Virus record (IMG/VR): IMGVR_UViG_3300045988_158467
Coordinates: 1-54,823 of that record
Length of the DNA: 54,823 nucleotides
Strand: one strand, 5' to 3'
Origin: a virus
In this document: positions 46,531-53,514 of the stretch, one piece after another
Position numbering within the stretch: position 1 is the stretch's first letter
How the letters are laid out: the number at the start of each line of letters is the position of its first letter
The notes under the pieces: model-generated
What the model saw: only the letters and a program-made list of their open reading frames with translations
Told to the model about the DNA's origin: nothing
Databases searched by the model: none
Program-made: the position numbers and the translations under genes

Positions 46531-47190
46531 TTACTTATCTAATTTATACCACATACCAGGTATACATCCATCATATATTTCAGATGTATTATTTGTTGGT
46601 ACATGGTATATTTTAACTCCTGTTATCTCTATTCTTTCTGTACTTTTTTCTTTTAGGTACAACGTTATTTTTCTAGTTTCTCCAGCTGATATATTTTGTT
46701 CAACACCATTCCATGGTATACAAGTATTGTTTTTATCATATTCTTTAAAATCTATTTCTAAATAATTTATATCATTTCCTGTATTATTAGTCCATGTAAA
46801 TTCAAAACTTGGAGAAATTTCATCATCTAGATAAGTTTTTTCTATACTATCAAGTTGTTTAGCTATATATTTTTCAGCTTCTACTTCATTTCCACTATAA
46901 TTTTCAGGTATTTTTAAATTTACACCATCTTGATAATATTTAGCTTCTTCTTCTATTTTCCAGTCGTGGTTATTTAAAAAATTAATCTCATCCTCTGTTA
47001 ACAACTTTCTGTATGCTTCTGTTAATTCATCCCCTTCTAATCCTTGTAAAGTGGCAATTCTATCTTTTTCAGTCATATGTTCTTCTTTTATAGAGCTTTC
47101 AGCTTTATTCTTATTTATATTATCACTACAACCTACCATACTTACTGCTAATATCCCTGATGTTAAAATGCTTATTAATTTTTTATTCAT
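46531..47190 (-). CDS. prophage lipoprotein
   Basis: MNKKLISILTSGILAVSMVGC is a signal peptide with a lipobox (VGC). ATG 47190 is well spaced from the GGGGG RBS. Confidence 0.7.
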   Translation of the reverse strand: MNKKLISILTSGILAVSMVGCSDNINKNKAESSIKEEHMTEKDRIATLQGLEGDELTEAYRKLLTEDEINFLNNHDWKIEEEAKYYQDGVNLKIPENYSGNEVEAEKYIAKQLDSIEKTYLDDEISPSFEFTWTNNTGNDINYLEIDFKEYDKNNTCIPWNGVEQNISAGETRKITLYLKEKSTERIEITGVKIYHVPTNNTSEIYDGCIPGMWYKLDK

Positions 47191-47254
47191 AAATAACATC
47201 CCCCTTAATAATTTATATTTTAGAATTCTATTTTATTTGACAATTTCCTCTTTG

Positions 47255-47971
47255 TTATTCATATCCATTCTCTCGTGCAAACTTATGAAATTTATCATAC
47301 GATACTTCAAACACTTTTTTCTCTTTTCTTAGTTTTTTAGATTTTTTATATTTATCCCTTAAAAGTTCCATAAAATCGTATTTTGAAAATGGAATACCTA
47401 TAAAATACTTAAATCCTTTATTGTATTTATTCCTCATATGAGCTACTATTGTATTTTCTCCAATTTGGAAAAATAAATCGACATTTGAAGGGATATGAAG
47501 GTTACCAAACTTATAAGCCCATTTCCACTCATAAAGTTTTTCATATGGATTTTTCGGATATTTTGTTATATCTCTTATTTCTTTATCCATAACATTAAAT
47601 ACCCAAACTAAATTATTATTTTTACTATAAAATGTACTTCTTTCGATAAAATCCTGAGATTTCAAAGGAGATTTTTGAAACTCTATGACTAAATTCCCTG
47701 CTTTTATATCAGCTCTATGTTTCTCGCCTTCTTCATTTAAGACAATTTCTCTAAATTGTTCAGGAAAATGTTCTTGCCAATACTTGTGCCACTCACTCAT
47801 TTCATACCAGTCATCGCAATTAACTTTTGTTTTATGAGCAAAATGCCATTGATTCACTATTCCTTTCTTTAGTATTAATTTCCCGTGGCAACAAGGACAA
47901 TAATAGTTATTTCCTTCAACAGCATCTTTTATATTGATTCTATTTTTTAAATCGTCATAAGCATAAAACAA
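47255..47971 (-). CDS. CoiA-like competence-family nuclease
   Basis: YYCPCCHGKLILKKG...WHFAH... then HRADIKAGNLVIEFQKSPL...ERSTFY...LVWVFNV matches the CoiA-family Zn-finger plus PD-(D/E)xK pattern. TTG start. Confidence 0.65.
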   Translation of the reverse strand: MFYAYDDLKNRINIKDAVEGNNYYCPCCHGKLILKKGIVNQWHFAHKTKVNCDDWYEMSEWHKYWQEHFPEQFREIVLNEEGEKHRADIKAGNLVIEFQKSPLKSQDFIERSTFYSKNNNLVWVFNVMDKEIRDITKYPKNPYEKLYEWKWAYKFGNLHIPSNVDLFFQIGENTIVAHMRNKYNKGFKYFIGIPFSKYDFMELLRDKYKKSKKLRKEKKVFEVSYDKFHKFARENGYE

Positions 47972-48034
47972 TTATTAATCATCCTCCTCATAGACTACTC
48001 AAAAGAGTAGCCTACTTTATTATATTAATCCTAT

Positions 48035-48838
48035 TTATCTTATTAAGTCTAAGTCTTTTTCTATTGTAGGTAAAATCTCTTTTTCTTTTAAAAACTCATA
48101 CAAGAATAATCTTCCCTTTTGAGTCCATTTAGTAATAATGCTCACATCATCTCTTCCGTCTTTATGTTTATAATTTACTGTTTCAGAATGAGTATATCCC
48201 TTATTTTGATATTTTTTATATAAAAACCATTGATTACCTAATCTATATTGTATTTTAAAATCACAAAGTAATTTATTGAACTCTTGAGCAGACATTCCAT
48301 AATCTTTTGCTATTGATGTTACTTTGATTAATCCTTTATTTTGTAAAATTATATCTGTATAATGTGCTTTAGGTTTTAATACTTTTATTTCATCGTGTAG
48401 TGGTTCAGTTACTACTTTTTCAAAATCTTTGATTGCTATGGCTTGTTCTATATCTGTTCTTGAATTGATTATATTTAATATTGCTTGGTCGTGTTTTGTT
48501 AATTGTGGTTTTGGATTGAAATAATTTTCTTCTAATGCATCAAACATTTCCCATGCTTTATCAGTTCCTAACATTTTACAATGTCTACTTGCACCCCTCT
48601 TAGTCCATAGATATAGTGTTCTAGTTTTAGGTGATATTTGTAATTCGAAATTTTCTAGTCGCAAATTTTTAAGTTCTTCACCTTCGATTTTATAATAATG
48701 TTTGTCTTTTATAAATTTATCTTTGTTATTGTTGAAGTTTTGTTGTATTTGTAGTACATCACATTCATACACCTCAGCTAATATTTTAGTAGTTATAACA
48801 ACTTCCTCTTTGTAATTTATAGGTTTTAATTCTTTCAT
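48035..48838 (-). CDS. phage antirepressor (ORF6N/KilA-N-like N-terminal domain plus KilAC/ANT C-terminal domain)
   Basis: ...VITTKILAEVYECDVLQIQQNFNNNKDKF...YLWTKRGASRHCKMLGTDKAWEMFD... and ...VTSIAKDYGMSAQEFNKLL... Confidence 0.65.
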   Translation of the reverse strand: MKELKPINYKEEVVITTKILAEVYECDVLQIQQNFNNNKDKFIKDKHYYKIEGEELKNLRLENFELQISPKTRTLYLWTKRGASRHCKMLGTDKAWEMFDALEENYFNPKPQLTKHDQAILNIINSRTDIEQAIAIKDFEKVVTEPLHDEIKVLKPKAHYTDIILQNKGLIKVTSIAKDYGMSAQEFNKLLCDFKIQYRLGNQWFLYKKYQNKGYTHSETVNYKHKDGRDDVSIITKWTQKGRLFLYEFLKEKEILPTIEKDLDLIR

Positions 48839-48959
48839 ACTCTAATCCTCCAATTGTTTTTTATCTTGGAGACTGTTATAATGTAAATAGAGATTTTGAT
48901 TAAGTCTCCATTTGTTTAAAGATATCCTATGCTTTCTCAGGGCGAATAGGGTATCTTTT

Positions 48960-49103
48960 TTATTTATCTTTGTCAACGTACTTAATTATAAATTCTGTAA
49001 TAACTTCTTTCATCGTCCGTTCATCTTCTAAAAGTTTTATTTTGAGTTTTTTATAAAGTTCAGGACTAACTCTAACTGTTATCTTTTTTTCTTCATTTTT
49101 CAT
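48960..49103 (-). CDS. ribbon-helix-helix (CopG/Arc-like) protein (47 aa)
   Basis: GGAGGTG RBS. KKITVRVSPELYKKLKIKLLEDERTMKEVITEFI shows a beta-strand plus two-helix pattern. Confidence 0.5.
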   Translation of the reverse strand: MKNEEKKITVRVSPELYKKLKIKLLEDERTMKEVITEFIIKYVDKDK

Positions 49104-49238
49104 CTTTATCACCTCCTTTACTATTTATACTATAATGGTAGTCCTTAAGGAAAAAGCCGTCAACTATATTTTAAAAAATATTCCAATAATCGTTCGACAT
49201 AAAAAGACTAGAGAAGTCAATCCCTAGCCTTTCCTTTA

Positions 49239-49445
49239 TTAGCAACTATAATATTTATTTTCTATATTATTATATCTCTTTAGAAGAATATCATTTTCTC
49301 CCCAAAATCTTGCTTCTACTTGGTCAATATCAACTTTTTCTTTACAAATTTCTCTAAATAGATTAATTGCACTTACATAATCAGTCCAACCACTATATAG
49401 TTCTAAACCTTCATTATTTATCCAACTAACTTGAAAATTATTCAT
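49239..49445 (-). CDS. hypothetical protein (68 aa)
   Basis: Translationally coupled (TAAATG) to the upstream 47-aa ORF. Confidence 0.45.
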   Translation of the reverse strand: MNNFQVSWINNEGLELYSGWTDYVSAINLFREICKEKVDIDQVEARFWGENDILLKRYNNIENKYYSC

Positions 49446-49589
49446 TTATTTGCCCTCCATGTCTTTTAATATTATATTTATAAGTTCTTCCTTAGTAAAT
49501 TCATCTCCTGGATAATATCCTCTTGCATCATAGAAGTATTCTTTTAACATTTCCATGCTAGTTTTTTCTAACATTTCTTTCATTTTCAT
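49446..49589 (-). CDS. hypothetical protein (47 aa)
   Basis: AAGGGGGA RBS. First gene of a leftward mini-operon. Confidence 0.4.
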   Translation of the reverse strand: MKMKEMLEKTSMEMLKEYFYDARGYYPGDEFTKEELINIILKDMEGK

Positions 49590-49805
49590 ATCCCCCTTTT
49601 TCTTTTATAGTAATATATATGCAGTGATTAAATAAAAATTACATAAATTTATATAAAAATTAAATAATTTTTTATTAATTTTATGTAACACTTATAGAAG
49701 AATTGCATAACTTAATATTAAAGAAGGATTTTAATAAAAAATAAATAATATAATTATTATACATTTTTTAAATAAATCTTGAATAAAAATTAGTGAGGTG
49801 AGATT

Positions 49806-49976
49806 ATGGCAAAAGAAAAACCAACTATAATCAATATAAGCTTCAAAACACAAACACTAGATGATAAGATGCTCTTAGATTGGCTAGAAGTCAAATTTAA
49901 AGAATATGGGAAATCAAATTATATAAAGAATGTGCTTAGAGAAAAGATGTATAAAGAAATAAATAAAGAAGAGTAA
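49806..49976 (+). CDS. small RHH-like protein (56 aa)
   Basis: GTGAGGTGAG RBS. PTIINISFKTQTLDDKMLLDWLE. Followed by a terminator. Confidence 0.45.
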   Translation: MAKEKPTIINISFKTQTLDDKMLLDWLEVKFKEYGKSNYIKNVLREKMYKEINKEE

Positions 49977-49986
49977 ACAAAAGAAA

Positions 49987-50016
49987 AAGCCGAGAACGAA
50001 TATCTCAGGCTTTTTT
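49987..50016 (+). terminator. Rho-independent terminator
   Basis: AAGCCGAGA/TCTCAGGCTT stem (one bulge) followed by a T6 run. Confidence 0.6.
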
Positions 50017-50154
50017 ATTATGTTAAAATAGAATTTTTTCTATTATATCTAGAGCAATAGCACACCCAAACCAAAATACAGCTTGACCCATTCTAATTCA
50101 CCTACTTGCGATTTTGTGTATTAATATTATTTGCAAATTTAAGGAGGTTTATTC

Positions 50155-50523
50155 ATGAAATCTTATACTTTTTCTGAATACAAGCAATTACAAGAATTGA
50201 GTACCTTAGATAGATTTATAGGAAACTTAAAGAAGAATAAAAAAGAGTACGCTAGATTAGTATTTTTATTAGCTATAACAATTCCAAAGCCTATATTTGC
50301 CCAAAATAATGACATGGGACTAGGAGATGTAGCATGGGAAATAATTCACATGGTCCTTGTATTTGCTAAATATGGTTGCTTAGGGAAAGGTATACTATGC
50401 ATGACCAATGAAATGTTAGCAGGAGCTAATTTAAAAGAAGCTAGCTCTGCTGGATTACAATATTTTATTTTTTATATTATATTAAATATTTATCCAAGAT
50501 TGTTTAGTATGGTTAAATTTTAA
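50155..50523 (+). CDS. small membrane protein with long leader and two hydrophobic helices (VirB2/TrbC-propilin-like architecture)
   Basis: AAGGAGG RBS. A charged 30-aa N-terminus is followed by RLVFLLAITIPKPIFA|Q (candidate cleavage after A49). Two hydrophobic helices follow in the remaining 73 aa. Confidence 0.55.
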   Translation: MKSYTFSEYKQLQELSTLDRFIGNLKKNKKEYARLVFLLAITIPKPIFAQNNDMGLGDVAWEIIHMVLVFAKYGCLGKGILCMTNEMLAGANLKEASSAGLQYFIFYIILNIYPRLFSMVKF

Positions 50524-50535
50524 GGAGGTATTTAT

Positions 50536-50745
50536 ATGGATAAATTAAATGCTTTTTTAGGTAAATTTACAGTTGAGTGCTTAGAAACTTTAAGTATCGT
50601 TTGCTATGATTGGCTAGTAGTAGCTGGATTGATAGCTTTAGTTTTATATATATTTGGTTGGGAAAAAGGAAAGAGAGTAGGCTTAATGTGTCCTGCTATA
50701 TATATCATAATCAACATATTAAGCAAGGTGTTATGCCATGCTTAA
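50536..50745 (+). CDS. small two-TM membrane protein (VirB3-like position)
   Basis: AAGGAGG RBS. TM segments WLVVAGLIALVLYIFGW and LMCPAIYIIINILSKVL. Confidence 0.55.
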   Translation: MDKLNAFLGKFTVECLETLSIVCYDWLVVAGLIALVLYIFGWEKGKRVGLMCPAIYIIINILSKVLCHA

Positions 50746-53020
50746 TATAATTCCTAGTAAACCTAAAAGTATGAAATTAAGTGATTATTACGAATATAGA
50801 AAATGCGAATATTCAATTATCAGATTAGTTCCTACAAAGAGCAACAAAAATAATAATACTGAACAAATAGCATCTCTAATTAATAAAATGTTTAAGCAGT
50901 CTAATAAATATATAAATCAAGCTAGTAAAAAGTTAATTATCGTTCAAAAACCCAAAGTATCCTTTTATATTCATATTACAAAAGGAAAGGTCCAATTTTA
51001 TTTTATAATTCCTAAATTATATCTAAATCAATTTAAAATAAAATTTCAAGAGGTTTGGAAAAATATAGAGATTGAAGAAGTGGATAATATTCCAATGGAT
51101 ATTAATAGCTGCAGTAAATTTGATTTGCATTATAAATATGATGAGTCATTATCTCTTGCGGTTGATAAAAGAAATAATGACTTACTCAATAGCAACATGA
51201 CGATTACATCTATATTGGAAGAAAATGAAATGGTGGGAATATTATATAATTTTATACCGACTAGTGAAAAAGAATCCAACTATTTTAGATCTAATACCTA
51301 TCCAAGAGCAATTCAAAGATACAAAAATGGAGAAAATCTAAAAAAGTCAAAAAATATTAAAGATTTATCTGTAATAGCATTAAAAAATTTTATCTCACTC
51401 ATAAACGACCTCTTAAATTGTATTTTAAACGTACCACAAAATAATCAGCTTATACTTAATCCTTTACAATGCGAAATCTCTCATAGCACTAAAAGAAAGG
51501 GTGAGAAGGCAATTTGTAAAAATCAGAGTATAATTTTAACCAAATCTAGTGAGAAATCAAGAGAAATTGAACTTTCTAACGCTTTTTCTAATACTTTCAA
51601 GATAATTTCAGATGATAATGAGTTAATCATTAATGAAATTACTAAAAACATTGATATAAAAAAGACAACTATAAATCATGTGAATGTTAATAAAACAACA
51701 ATTGAAGAAAGCAGTAATTTTATAAGTATGCCTAGTCTAGAGGTTATAGATCAATTTAAGATGATTGAACATAATAAGTGCCTAGAGTTGAAAGCCCCTA
51801 AATGTTTAGAAGGTGGAGAAGTAAGAATTGGAACTGTAAAGAATAAAGAAAACAAACAAGAGGTATATTACTCCATGGATGAGCAAATGAAAAGATTAGG
51901 AAGAGTATTGCTTGGCAGTATGGGTAGTGGTAAATCTTATTACATGCAAAATATGGCAAGTGATATTATAAAGGCTGGTAGAGGATTAGTAGTAATAGAT
52001 TATATAGATAAATGTCAGCTATCAGATAATATAAAGAAAATAACTTCAAAGGATAAATTAGTAGAAATTAATTTCAATGATCCTAAGCAAGTTCAATCAT
52101 TTAACTTTAATGAGTTAATATTTAATGAAGATGATAACATATACTATAAGGTTAATATAGCTATGCAGAAAGCTGAACAAATGCAATTATTATTAGACAG
52201 TATAAATGATGACAATAGTAAACTTACACCAAGAATGCTTAGATATTTTTATGCAGCTGCTACAGTAGTATATTATAAGAATGTAAATGCTAGTTTTAAA
52301 GACATTATTAATATATTGAAATATCCAGATAAAAGATTTGAGTTAATAAAGAATGTACCGGATATTTTAATAGAAGAAATAGAAGATTTAAAAGATCTAG
52401 ATAAAATAGATAGCAAAGGTAGAGTAGAGAATTATGATAGCAAGATAGATGGAATACTGGACCGTGTTAGCTGGTTAAAAACTAATTTATATACAAAACT
52501 AGCATTTAATAAAGAAGCTGATAATAATATTAATTTTGTAGAAGCTATGAAGCAGAATAAAGTAATTCTGATAAAAATACCTGAACAGTATTTTAAAAGC
52601 AGAATGATTAGAAATGTAATTGCCACATACTTTTTAAATAAAGTTTGGATTAGTAAGCAAATAGATTGTAGTACACATACAGAATTATTCTTTGATGAGA
52701 TACATCAATGTTACAACTGCCAACTACTTATGCAAAACATATTGGTAGAATGTAGAAAATTTCAATTAACTCCTACTTTAGCTTTACATTATTTAGATCA
52801 GTTAACTCCTAAGTGCAAAAATAGTGTATTGGCATCTGGATCTAGTTATTTATTATTGCAAGGATGTAATGTAAAAGCATTTAAAGAATTATCTACTTAC
52901 TTTGAAAAAGATGGATATAGTGAAATTGATTTAGCTGAATTAGATAGATACAACGCTTTATGTCTAATAAAGAATGAAGAACAAGGATATAGCTCGTTTA
53001 TATGTAAGCTGCCTAGTTAG
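50738..53020 (+). CDS. 760-aa P-loop ATPase of the FtsK/HerA-VirB4/VirD4 (AAA_10/TraG-D_C-like) type with an uncharacterised ~370-aa N-terminal region
   Basis: Walker A GSMGSGKS (51914-51937). Walker B LFFDE (52685-52699). Downstream ECRKFQLTPTLALHYLDQL...SYLLLQG. Overlaps the preceding gene by 8 nt. Confidence 0.65.
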   Translation: MLNIIPSKPKSMKLSDYYEYRKCEYSIIRLVPTKSNKNNNTEQIASLINKMFKQSNKYINQASKKLIIVQKPKVSFYIHITKGKVQFYFIIPKLYLNQFKIKFQEVWKNIEIEEVDNIPMDINSCSKFDLHYKYDESLSLAVDKRNNDLLNSNMTITSILEENEMVGILYNFIPTSEKESNYFRSNTYPRAIQRYKNGENLKKSKNIKDLSVIALKNFISLINDLLNCILNVPQNNQLILNPLQCEISHSTKRKGEKAICKNQSIILTKSSEKSREIELSNAFSNTFKIISDDNELIINEITKNIDIKKTTINHVNVNKTTIEESSNFISMPSLEVIDQFKMIEHNKCLELKAPKCLEGGEVRIGTVKNKENKQEVYYSMDEQMKRLGRVLLGSMGSGKSYYMQNMASDIIKAGRGLVVIDYIDKCQLSDNIKKITSKDKLVEINFNDPKQVQSFNFNELIFNEDDNIYYKVNIAMQKAEQMQLLLDSINDDNSKLTPRMLRYFYAAATVVYYKNVNASFKDIINILKYPDKRFELIKNVPDILIEEIEDLKDLDKIDSKGRVENYDSKIDGILDRVSWLKTNLYTKLAFNKEADNNINFVEAMKQNKVILIKIPEQYFKSRMIRNVIATYFLNKVWISKQIDCSTHTELFFDEIHQCYNCQLLMQNILVECRKFQLTPTLALHYLDQLTPKCKNSVLASGSSYLLLQGCNVKAFKELSTYFEKDGYSEIDLAELDRYNALCLIKNEEQGYSSFICKLPS

Positions 53021-53253
53021 GTAGCTTATTTTTATGTAAATTTGTATTAAAAAAAGGAGCACATGTATAAGCACGCACTCCCCTATGGACACTGACCATA
53101 TCATAAACCGTGTATTAAATATCTAAACAAGTTTAGAACGTTTCACTTATCAAATACACTTGATATAGTGTATGCAAATCACTGGCTAAAAATTGCATGT
53201 CCTTTCATATTTAACACATATTTAACATTTAATTCCTAACTGCTATGATTGCC

Positions 53254-53514
53254 TGTGGATAAAATTGTGGATAAAATATAATAACTGACTTTTTACTGAC
53301 ATTTTAAATGTATTCATGGTTGTATTGCTGAATATAACTTAAATTGATAAACATAGTCAATCACACGTACAGTGTGACAAAGACCATTGCAAACTTTGGT
53401 GTTGAATGGCAAGTGCAAGTATTTTTAGTACTTGCACTTGTAACTAATGGTAACTTTTACTATATTTAAGACTGGCAATACACTGACAACTGACAATCAA
53501 ACTGACAACTGACA
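53254..53514. repeat. attP-like repeat cluster adjacent to int
   Basis: TGTGGATAAAAT x2 in tandem (53254-53277). ACTGAC x2 (53284-53300). A 12-bp inverted repeat CAAGTGCAAGTA/TACTTGCACTTG (53410-53440). ACTGACAACTGACA x2 (53482-53495 and 53501-53514), abutting the int stop codon. Confidence 0.5.

Follow-up and report, generated by a model that had tools for sequence, protein, structure and literature searches.

Introduction

Two described systems come closest to the locus analyzed here, positions 49806-53020 of a 54,823-nucleotide (nt) stretch of viral DNA (IMG/VR virus record IMGVR_UViG_3300045988_158467, positions 1 to 54,823; the whole stretch is termed the window). The first is a gene set of phage SPP1. 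In the re-annotation of the SPP1 genome, gp32 is described as a non-essential protein of 836 amino acids (aa), which is encoded in the early PE5 operon, is TrwB/VirB4/FtsK-like by HHpred and has no transmembrane (TM) segment (Godinho et al. 2018, PMC6316719). The same study proposed that gp32, together with the membrane proteins gp31.1 and gp31.2, forms a 'trans-membrane translocon', the function of which was not established. We found no follow-up literature on SPP1 gp32 or on phage VirB4/VirB2 modules. The second is the type IV secretion system (T4SS), in whose Gram-positive versions VirB2-like two-helix proteins are functional (preprint 10.64898/2025.12.18.695078). An earlier note on the window, made from its sequence alone, had read three of its genes as an orphan virB2/virB3/virB4-like operon and a candidate for an undescribed prophage system. 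Our analysis shows that 49806-53020 is the window phage's copy of a four-gene accessory module, whose type example is SPP1 genes 31, 31.1, 31.2 and 32. The module is not wholly undescribed, since the 2018 study had already pointed to three of its SPP1 members (gp31.1, gp31.2 and gp32) as a potential translocon (PMC6316719). We lean towards the reading that it is a minimal membrane machine derived from T4SSs, a stripped-down relative of their inner-membrane core.

A four-gene module shared with SPP1

The module consists of four open reading frames (ORFs), here termed G0, G1, G2 and the ATPase gene:

49806-49976, plus strand: G0 ORF, 56 aa, the conserved first gene of the module
50155-50523, plus strand: G1 ORF, 122 aa
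50536-50745, plus strand: G2 ORF, 69 aa
50738-53020, plus strand: ATPase ORF, 760 aa, overlapping the end of G2 by 8 nt

The last three ORFs have exactly the strand, the sizes and the overlap given in the earlier note; the conserved unit, however, comprises four genes rather than three, as G0 is part of it. BLASTP aligns residues 10-758 of the ATPase with residues 29-804 of SPP1 gp32 (E=2e-19). A profile of the Clostridial G0 proteins matches that of the SPP1-type gp31 proteins with an hhalign probability of 94.7% (E=5.6e-8), and G1 is colinear with SPP1 gp31.1, if only weakly similar to it (BLASTP 0.009; hhalign E=1e-3). Between G2 and SPP1 gp31.2 sequence similarity is undetectable, and the two have position and topology alone in common.

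By tblastn the ATPase was found in 85 phage records when the window protein was the query, and in 107 when SPP1 gp32 was used instead. Its carriers include the strictly lytic phages SPP1, SPO1 (gp27.4), CP-51 (gp91) and SP-10. This does not agree with the suggestion that the genes are a moron for lysogenic conversion, at least not as their general logic, and in SPP1 they belong to an early operon and are non-essential (PMC6316719). Gene order was surveyed in the 89 loci which have a complete ATPase gene and enough upstream sequence. In 69 of them the ATPase gene is preceded, in strict order, by an ORF for a 105-160-aa TM protein and an ORF for a 50-125-aa TM protein, and in 68 of these 69 canonical loci a further ORF, encoding a TM-less protein of 50-125 aa, is found just upstream. 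Most of the remaining loci are variants, having either an HNH homing endonuclease gene before the ATPase gene, a longer G2 or a herellevirus layout; in one clade (L054-L056, L058, L059 and L069) G1 was missed by our ORF-chaining rule. The triad of the earlier note does, therefore, co-occur elsewhere, and with about 90 other loci showing the arrangement it is not an orphan of this prophage.

An exhaustive search yielded 481 clusters of ATPase family members at 50% identity with E<=1e-30, while a genome scan using a narrower ATPase alignment gave five loci. The family is also present on about 50 plasmids, many of which are phage-plasmids of 40-60 kb. All four genes were detected in a phage-plasmid of Clostridium botulinum (G0 4e-7, G1 6e-9, G2 6.5e-9), where they adjoin the terminase genes. 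Compared with their relatives, all four module genes are under purifying selection: their ratios of nonsynonymous to synonymous substitution rates (dN/dS) range from 0.09 to 0.45, with 0.09-0.19 for G0, 0.13-0.30 for G1 and 0.17-0.45 for G2.

These results bear on the suggestion that the genes are a captured remnant of a conjugative element, which would be decaying and have no present function. It could account for the fact that the window contains no other T4SS gene (VirB8, B1, B11 or D4), no relaxase gene and no oriT, and for the dispensability of gene 32 in SPP1 (PMC6316719). A decayed fragment is nevertheless excluded, because the four-gene order is kept in about 90 loci of very different elements, because the dN/dS values of the four genes all stay well below 1 and because the ATPase family comprises hundreds of diverse full-length members in its 481 clusters. 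Moreover, the catalytic residues of the ATPase are invariant down to 17% identity. We regard any chance left to this explanation as negligible.

Some variants and neighbours of the module were of note. At L021 (5295-5963) and L031 (5372-5965) a homing endonuclease gene with NUMOD4 and HNH_3 domains sits exactly between G2 and the ATPase gene. In the herelleviruses SPO1 (gp29.1 to gp27.4, L102 933-6990) and CP-51 (gp97 to gp91, L003 575-6550) the module is extended to a cluster that contains a pilin-like gene, a gene for an actin-like protein of the ALP/Alp7A (Alp7A/ParM) type, a gene with the pattern of ribbon-helix-helix (RHH) proteins, three tiny TM genes, the ATPase gene and a Replic_Relax gene (PF13814). 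This extended cluster resembles a kit for segregation and processing of the kind found on plasmids. The botulinum neurotoxin plasmid pCLK (267 kb; NC_010418, L103 11633-14433) has a G1 counterpart that overlaps the ATPase homologue by 4 nt, with no G2 between them and no other T4SS gene within 12 kb; MOB-suite types this plasmid as MPF_T and non-mobilizable. In the clade whose ATPase is ~49% identical to that of the window, the region just upstream of G0 holds variable cargo. At L042 (2481-4892), L049 (2232-4895) and L047 (2851-4665) this cargo encodes a CotH-kinase plus Big_2 protein, a GDSL lipase-domain protein and an FAD oxidoreductase, CotH-kinases being a spore-coat kinase family.

Database names of family members vary widely. 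In Clostridium phage phiCp-D (L001, 3983-6398) the ATPase homologue is split into a 'lipid A export ATP-binding/permease' and a 'TraD coupling protein', which probably reflects a frameshift or a sequencing error in combination with misleading names. Elsewhere members are called 'VFDB virulence factor' or 'DNA helicase or translocase', and the counterpart of the first gene in SplendidRed is a 'putative glycosyltransferase'.

The ATPase is a divergent member of the VirB4/VirD4 branch

No TM segment is predicted in the 760-aa ATPase, and the motifs GSMGSGKS, LFFDE and ECRKFQL, from which the earlier note had read a translocase of the FtsK/HerA-VirB4/VirD4 type, are all present. The protein has a soluble N-terminal alpha/beta domain (residues ~1-375) and a C-terminal P-loop domain of the FtsK-HerA type, with Walker A at 393-400, Walker B ending in DE654, and R673/K674. 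Residues G398, K399, D421, R533, R576 and E654 are unchanged in all 82 homologues.

Direct scans of Pfam and NCBIfam gave no useful match for the G1, G2 and ATPase proteins of the window, and a single-sequence search of the PDB with the ATPase returned none. Over its full length it belongs to phrog_5156 (7.7e-79), a PHROGs family of unknown function. When a profile of diverse family members was searched against the PDB, however, HerA (5.9e-4), DotL/IcmO, TrwB and a defence HerA were recovered, and many relatives have a precomputed match to PF10412 (TrwB_AAD_bind), which is of the VirD4 type. The AlphaFold2 model based on 82 sequences has a pLDDT of 87.9 and a pTM of 0.68. A Foldseek search of the PDB with this model gives TrwK/VirB4 of R388 as the best match (7e-14 to 1e-12) over the full length, followed by TrwB/VirD4 (3e-11), which aligns with the C-terminal domain only (TM-score ~0.6 on the target), and by HerA (1.7e-10). 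The N-terminal 375 aa modelled alone (pLDDT 87.6, pTM 0.81) retrieve, weakly, VirB4 proteins only: among 350,542 chains the top nine are all TrwK/VirB4 (E 6e-4 to 1.7e-2, probability 0.90-0.99).

A packaging ATPase was considered and rejected. Head and packaging genes of its own are present in the phage, the fold matches are of the T4SS and HerA types, and viral packaging ATPases show up among them at E>=1e-3 only. We conclude that the ATPase is a divergent, soluble two-domain member of the VirB4/VirD4 branch of the FtsK-HerA superfamily, in line with the class first proposed for it. Judged from the models, it resembles VirB4 in overall architecture and is equally close to VirD4 in its C-terminal domain.

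G1 has the design of a VirB2-type prepilin

The 122-aa G1 protein starts with a 49-aa leader, which combines a charged n-region (~33 aa) with the hydrophobic segment ARLVFLLAITI and ends in PKPIFA, a predicted cleavage site of the AxA type directly before a glutamine. The part that follows the leader is 73 aa long and contains two hydrophobic helices. Both features had been read correctly from the sequence, as had the two TM segments of G2. The same design is seen across the clades of the family: a charged N-terminus of 20-50 aa, an h-region, a predicted cleavage site and, after it, a pair of hydrophobic helices within ~70-75 aa. In 20 of the 23 aligned members this site has F, Y, L or M followed by A. 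VirB2 has 121 aa, with a leader of 47 aa. On sequence grounds G1 would thus have the design of the VirB2/TrbC/TraA prepilins, cleavage being predicted.

Several G1 counterparts link this design to pilin families. The one on pCLK, which NCBI annotates as 'TrbC/VirB2 family protein', scores 28.5 bits on PF04956 (TrbC/VirB2), the Pfam threshold being 27.9. Seven SPP1-type members match PF04956 nearly end to end, at 13-18 bits and hence below threshold (best 1e-4). PF18895 (T4SS_pilin) is matched, likewise below threshold, by CP-51 gp97 (19.3 bits) and SPO1 gp29.1 (15.3 bits).

A deep profile search assigned 286 members to the Clostridial-type G1 family, of which the best 120 carry neither an annotation nor a Pfam domain. 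Against the PDB, the G1 profile gave chance matches to Keap1 only. A circular-bacteriocin precursor was also considered for G1 and rejected, the single match to it being at chance level (0.073).

G2 is a predicted membrane hairpin and G0 a small soluble protein

In the 69-aa G2 protein a basic loop, GWEKGKR, links two hydrophobic segments (~15-45 and 48-69). In the majority of loci whose ATPase gene is complete, a small TM ORF comes either directly before this gene or before the inserted homing endonuclease gene. The sole family matches of G2 are compositional and concern TM-hairpin families.

G0 is soluble and shows a beta-alpha-alpha, RHH-like sequence pattern. The earlier note had assigned to the operon an RHH-like gene and a terminator of its own: the 56-aa gene and a hairpin are present, but a match to an RHH family was not found. 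Among 16 members, none matched an RHH family (CopG/Arc/ParR-like) or any other Pfam or PDB family, for which reason we use the RHH label for G0 as a description of its pattern. A lone depositor annotation, 'Arc/Mnt/CopG', lies under a gp32 match in phage LY5. The link of G0 to CP-51 gp95 and SPO1 gp27.8 is not significant.

A possible mechanism and the missing T4SS parts

From these features we infer how a T4SS-derived membrane machine could work. G1 would be a prepilin whose long leader lies in the cytoplasm; once inserted into the membrane, it would be cut by signal peptidase after IFA49, which would leave a 73-aa two-helix subunit of the VirB2/TrbC kind. The G2 hairpin, which is translationally coupled to the ATPase, may anchor this soluble protein to the membrane in the way VirB3 does for VirB4. 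At the membrane the ATPase would oligomerize and spend ATP either on extracting G1 and assembling it into a short conduit, or on driving a macromolecule through the assembly. G0 is likely a DNA-binding regulator or a substrate adaptor.

A number of observations weigh against this reading. First, the window G1 and the Clostridial-type clade to which it belongs match neither PF04956 (TrbC) nor PF18895 (T4SS_pilin), so that this clade is tied to VirB2 indirectly, through position, design and weak profile matches. Second, none of 21 G2 members matches the VirB3 or PrgI families. In addition, the positive-inside rule suggests that the basic loop of G2 is cytoplasmic and that both its termini are outside, and this predicted topology would resemble mature pilins of the VirB2/PrgF type (preprint 10.64898/2025.12.18.695078) rather than VirB3. 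Because of the missing family match and the termini-outside topology, 'VirB3-like' is kept as a positional analogy only. The likeness to virB2, virB3 and virB4 claimed at the outset thus largely holds for G1, through its prepilin design and the pilin matches of its counterparts, and for the ATPase, whereas for VirB3 it is one of position and topology. Third, the window ATPase and seven relatives do not match the curated VirB4 families (Pfam CagE_TrbE_VirB / AAA_10 and their NCBIfam equivalents), and the TM-scores between its N-terminal domain and VirB4 are just 0.30-0.35, at an rmsd of 11-12 A. Fourth, every T4SS studied, Gram-positive ones included, uses VirB6 as the platform for VirB2 assembly (preprint 10.64898/2025.12.18.695078). 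The window encodes no polytopic protein of the VirB6 kind, and neither do the surroundings of the module in 18 representative loci, among them pCLK with 12 kb on either side. The module therefore comes with no assembly platform for VirB2. Finally, SPP1 grows in the absence of gene 32 (PMC6316719).

The missing platform is what one would expect if the module were a parasite or a poison of resident conjugative T4SSs, its pilin-like and ATPase subunits plugging into the channel of a plasmid or of an integrative and conjugative element and either exporting phage DNA or blocking conjugation. VirB2-like pilins need a VirB6 platform (preprint 10.64898/2025.12.18.695078), the module encodes none, and its pCLK copy resides on a plasmid typed as MPF_T. 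The module is, however, kept in many hosts and elements regardless of a resident T4SS. In sequence it has diverged strongly from the canonical VirB4 families of Gram-positive bacteria, and no Pfam VirB4 family is matched. We consider such parasitism highly improbable.

The module at the end of a temperate myovirus

The carrier of the module is a complete temperate myovirus with genes for a portal, a head protein, a tail sheath (2.6e-119), a tape measure, a fibre, a holin, an endolysin, a CI-like repressor and a tyrosine integrase; the statement that the rest of the replicon is a complete phage lacking other T4SS parts was correct. Around the module ORFs the following signals were recognized:

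49731-49760, plus strand: promoter-like site TTAATA-18-TATTAT upstream of G0, from a consensus scan
49990-50008, no strand assigned: G+C-rich hairpin between G0 and G1, flanked by an A-run and a T-run and scored on the minus strand
53004-53029, plus strand: intrinsic terminator closing the operon, with an 11-bp stem, a 4-nt loop and a T-run

The site at 49731-49760 is the sole sigma-70-like match of the consensus scan that is placed to drive the module; as such matches are about as frequent in shuffled sequence, it is weak evidence for a promoter. Between the hairpin and G1 it gave no match to the sigma-A promoter consensus. The hairpin, whose plus-strand sequence is AAAAAGCCGAGAACGAATATCTCAGGCTTTTTT, could be a bidirectional terminator or an attenuator. 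Ribosome-binding sites of the AAGGAGG type precede G1 and G2, and the ATPase gene has a weaker AAGGTG, so that the strong sites ascribed to the whole operon apply to its first two genes only.

The module adjoins an attP-like region and the integrase gene, as had been claimed, but it does not follow directly on the lysis genes: a 3.3-kb minus-strand block (46531-49589), which includes an antirepressor gene, separates the two. The antirepressor gene (48035-48838, minus strand) encodes ORF6N and ANT/KilAC domains (1e-20 and 4e-33) and is followed by several tiny minus-strand ORFs. Between the endolysin and antirepressor genes lie two further minus-strand ORFs (46531-47199, 222 aa, and 47255-47971, 238 aa), which have no PHROG match and are uncharacterized cargo in the accessory region of the module. 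The non-coding region between the terminator of the ATPase gene and the integrase stop codon (53030-53514) contains tandem direct repeats, namely two copies each of ACTGACAACTGACA (53482-53514), TGTGGATAAAAT (53254-53277) and CATATTTAACA (53206-53227), and a perfect 12-nt inverted repeat at 53410-53440. These repeats are probably attP with arm-type sites of the integrase. There is no tRNA gene in the window. In DNA-level searches, near-identical DNA to the module region was absent from the phage collection, and the structural region of the window returned trivial 50-nt matches only.

This placement is shared by TPDSL_ph2: in both phages the module lies at the prophage end, next to an attP-like region and the integrase gene, and is bounded by terminator-like hairpins. 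It fits superinfection exclusion or defence, in which a membrane complex of the infected or lysogenic cell would use ATP to block or expel incoming phage, plasmid or conjugative DNA. The genes have the usual profile of exclusion genes, being membrane-located, accessory, non-essential and, in SPP1, early (PMC6316719). An arms race could also be read from a close relative (L017, IMGVR_UViG_3300045988_137753), whose ATPase is 94% identical to that of the window (dS 0.27) and whose G1 (130 aa) and G2 (57 aa) are strongly diverged from those of the window (dS 1.6-2.1); with a closely similar ATPase next to two diverged small genes, G1 and G2 were exchanged as a cassette. Furthermore, HerA-type ATPases from defence systems are among the fold matches (8j4u, 8sub), and PADLOC gave one match, of the ATPase to MADS mad8 (E=3.8e-4, 18 bits). 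This match is not significant, G0, G1 and G2 have none, and known defence families are thus not significantly matched. Known exclusion proteins are small and act singly, which leaves a two-domain ATPase of 760-900 aa and a processed pilin-like protein unexplained. Nor does exclusion account for the ParM-like and Replic_Relax genes that accompany the module in SPO1 and CP-51, or for the restriction to spore-formers described below. Taken together, we see exclusion as an unlikely role, yet one to be kept in view.

The family is apparently restricted to spore-formers

Phage hosts of the family are Bacillus, Geobacillus, Lysinibacillus, Brevibacillus, Alicyclobacillus, Clostridium and Terrisporobacter. 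The plasmids come from Clostridium, Bacillus, Alicyclobacillus, Thermoactinomyces and Laceyella, and the genome and metagenome sources are Romboutsia, Paraclostridium, Metaclostridioides, Paenibacillus and Peptococcaceae. All credible hosts and sources are thus endospore-forming Firmicutes (Bacilli and Clostridia), an apparent pattern that is striking, though uncorrected for phylogeny or sampling. There are two exceptions to it, a 'Microcystis phage' and a weak match on an Embleya plasmid. The former, Microcystis phage MaeS (MT362618.1, H85), is the only cyanophage record with a member. The match falls into a group with PBC4/Basilisk-type Bacillus phages, so that the assigned host may be incorrect.

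Searches of the phage collection recovered no member in phages of Staphylococcus, Streptococcus, Lactococcus, Listeria or Enterococcus. Phages of these five genera are heavily sampled in that collection. As the searches reach 19-20% identity, equally diverged members in phages of non-sporulators should have shown up.

This distribution is one reason to consider that the module might be a spore-directed DNA translocon, which would move the DNA of its element across the sporulation septum, into the forespore or to the sister cell, or otherwise secure its inheritance in spores ('virospores'). G0 might then mark or guide the DNA and the ATPase pump it, with the actin-like filament and Replic_Relax assisting in SPO1-like phages. 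Several further observations can be cited for it. The module is carried by non-integrated elements (lytic phages, phage-plasmids and plasmids), which need active entry into the forespore; genes for an actin-like partition protein and Replic_Relax are interspersed with those of the module in SPO1 and CP-51; and the C-terminal domain of the ATPase resembles the DNA pumps TrwB, FtsK and HerA. SPO1 forms virospores, and a phage gene that moves its DNA into the forespore is not known (PMC12991052). All this evidence is purely correlative, however, and the uncorrected host range is part of it. As an integrative phage, that of the window would be carried into spores along with the chromosome. SpoIIIE, FtsK and TraB have their own TM domains and need no pilin, and VirB4 itself is not known as a DNA pump. 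We therefore judge a spore-directed translocon to be quite improbable.

Significance

Compared with the literature we found, our analysis adds the four-gene definition of the module with the homology of G0 to gp31, the pilin-family signal at the G1 position, and the breadth of the family, which extends from lytic phages and prophages to phage-plasmids and toxin plasmids and seems confined to spore-formers. If the module is a T4SS-derived membrane machine, phages of spore-formers carry a drastically reduced T4SS-like set that is devoid of the other T4SS parts. Such a set would demonstrate either the small number of parts on which a machine of this kind can run, or the use of host machinery by phages. 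Should the spore-directed reading be true, the module, minimal and self-contained, would supply the step of virospore formation for which a phage-encoded function has been missing, and T4SS-derived machinery would be able to work in the absence of VirB6 and VirB8. The apparent restriction to spore-formers points to the question of how non-integrated phage and plasmid genomes enter spores.

The family is present in SPP1 and SPO1, the two best-studied phages of B. subtilis, and on botulinum-toxin plasmids, and because deletions are viable it is tractable in B. subtilis. Finally, genes that are now called 'lipid A export permease', 'TraD', 'VFDB virulence factor', 'glycosyltransferase' or 'hypothetical' can be given an evidence-based label.

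Comparison with known systems

The SPP1 genes 31, 31.1, 31.2 and 32 are arranged in the same order as those of the window, with sizes of 94, 126, 105 and 836 aa compared to 56, 122, 69 and 760 aa, and in both phages the last two genes overlap. The two ATPases are, however, just ~20% identical, and G2 has no detectable similarity to gp31.2. Moreover, SPP1 is lytic and expresses its genes from an early promoter, whereas the window copy is located at the end of an integrative prophage, beside an attP-like region. Neither the pilin-like design of gp31.1 nor the homology of gene 31 is mentioned in the SPP1 paper (PMC6316719).

With VirB2-VirB3-VirB4 of T4SSs (TrwL-TrwM-TrwK of R388; PDB 7o42, 8rtd) the module shares gene order and sizes, a soluble two-domain ATPase whose best structural matches are TrwK/VirB4, both at full length and for the N-terminal domain alone, the predicted long-leader prepilin design of G1 and the translational coupling of G2 to the ATPase. 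Unlike that set, it is carried by phages and not by conjugative elements. The C-terminal domain of the window ATPase superposes best, by TM-score, on the coupling protein TrwB/VirD4 (PDB 1e9r/1e9s; PF10412, PF02534), which is in line with the PF10412 matches of its relatives and with DotL in the profile search. Coupling proteins have N-terminal TM helices, though, in place of which the window ATPase has a soluble domain of ~375 aa that matches VirB4 only.

PrgF of pCF10 is described as a protein of 50-150 aa with two TM helices, a short charged loop and, in some cases, a signal peptide (preprint 10.64898/2025.12.18.695078), a description that fits both G1 and G2. PrgF works, however, with the pentameric VirB6-like PrgH in a complete T4SS, and no such partner is found near the phage module.

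HerA defence ATPases (Sir2-HerA, 8j4u/8sub; MADS mad8) belong to the same superfamily and give fold matches of ~1e-9. They differ from the window ATPase in their N-terminal domain and in having an effector partner such as Sir2 or a nuclease, the module is also found in lytic phages, and the mad8 match is much too weak to indicate membership. The FtsK-HerA ATPases TraB of Streptomyces and SpoIIIE/FtsK transport DNA through a septum and require hardly any accessory proteins for it. They carry a TM domain and a DNA-recognition domain of their own and have no pilin-like subunit. The likeness of the window ATPase to them is at the level of the superfamily, and conceptually they are near to a spore-directed role.

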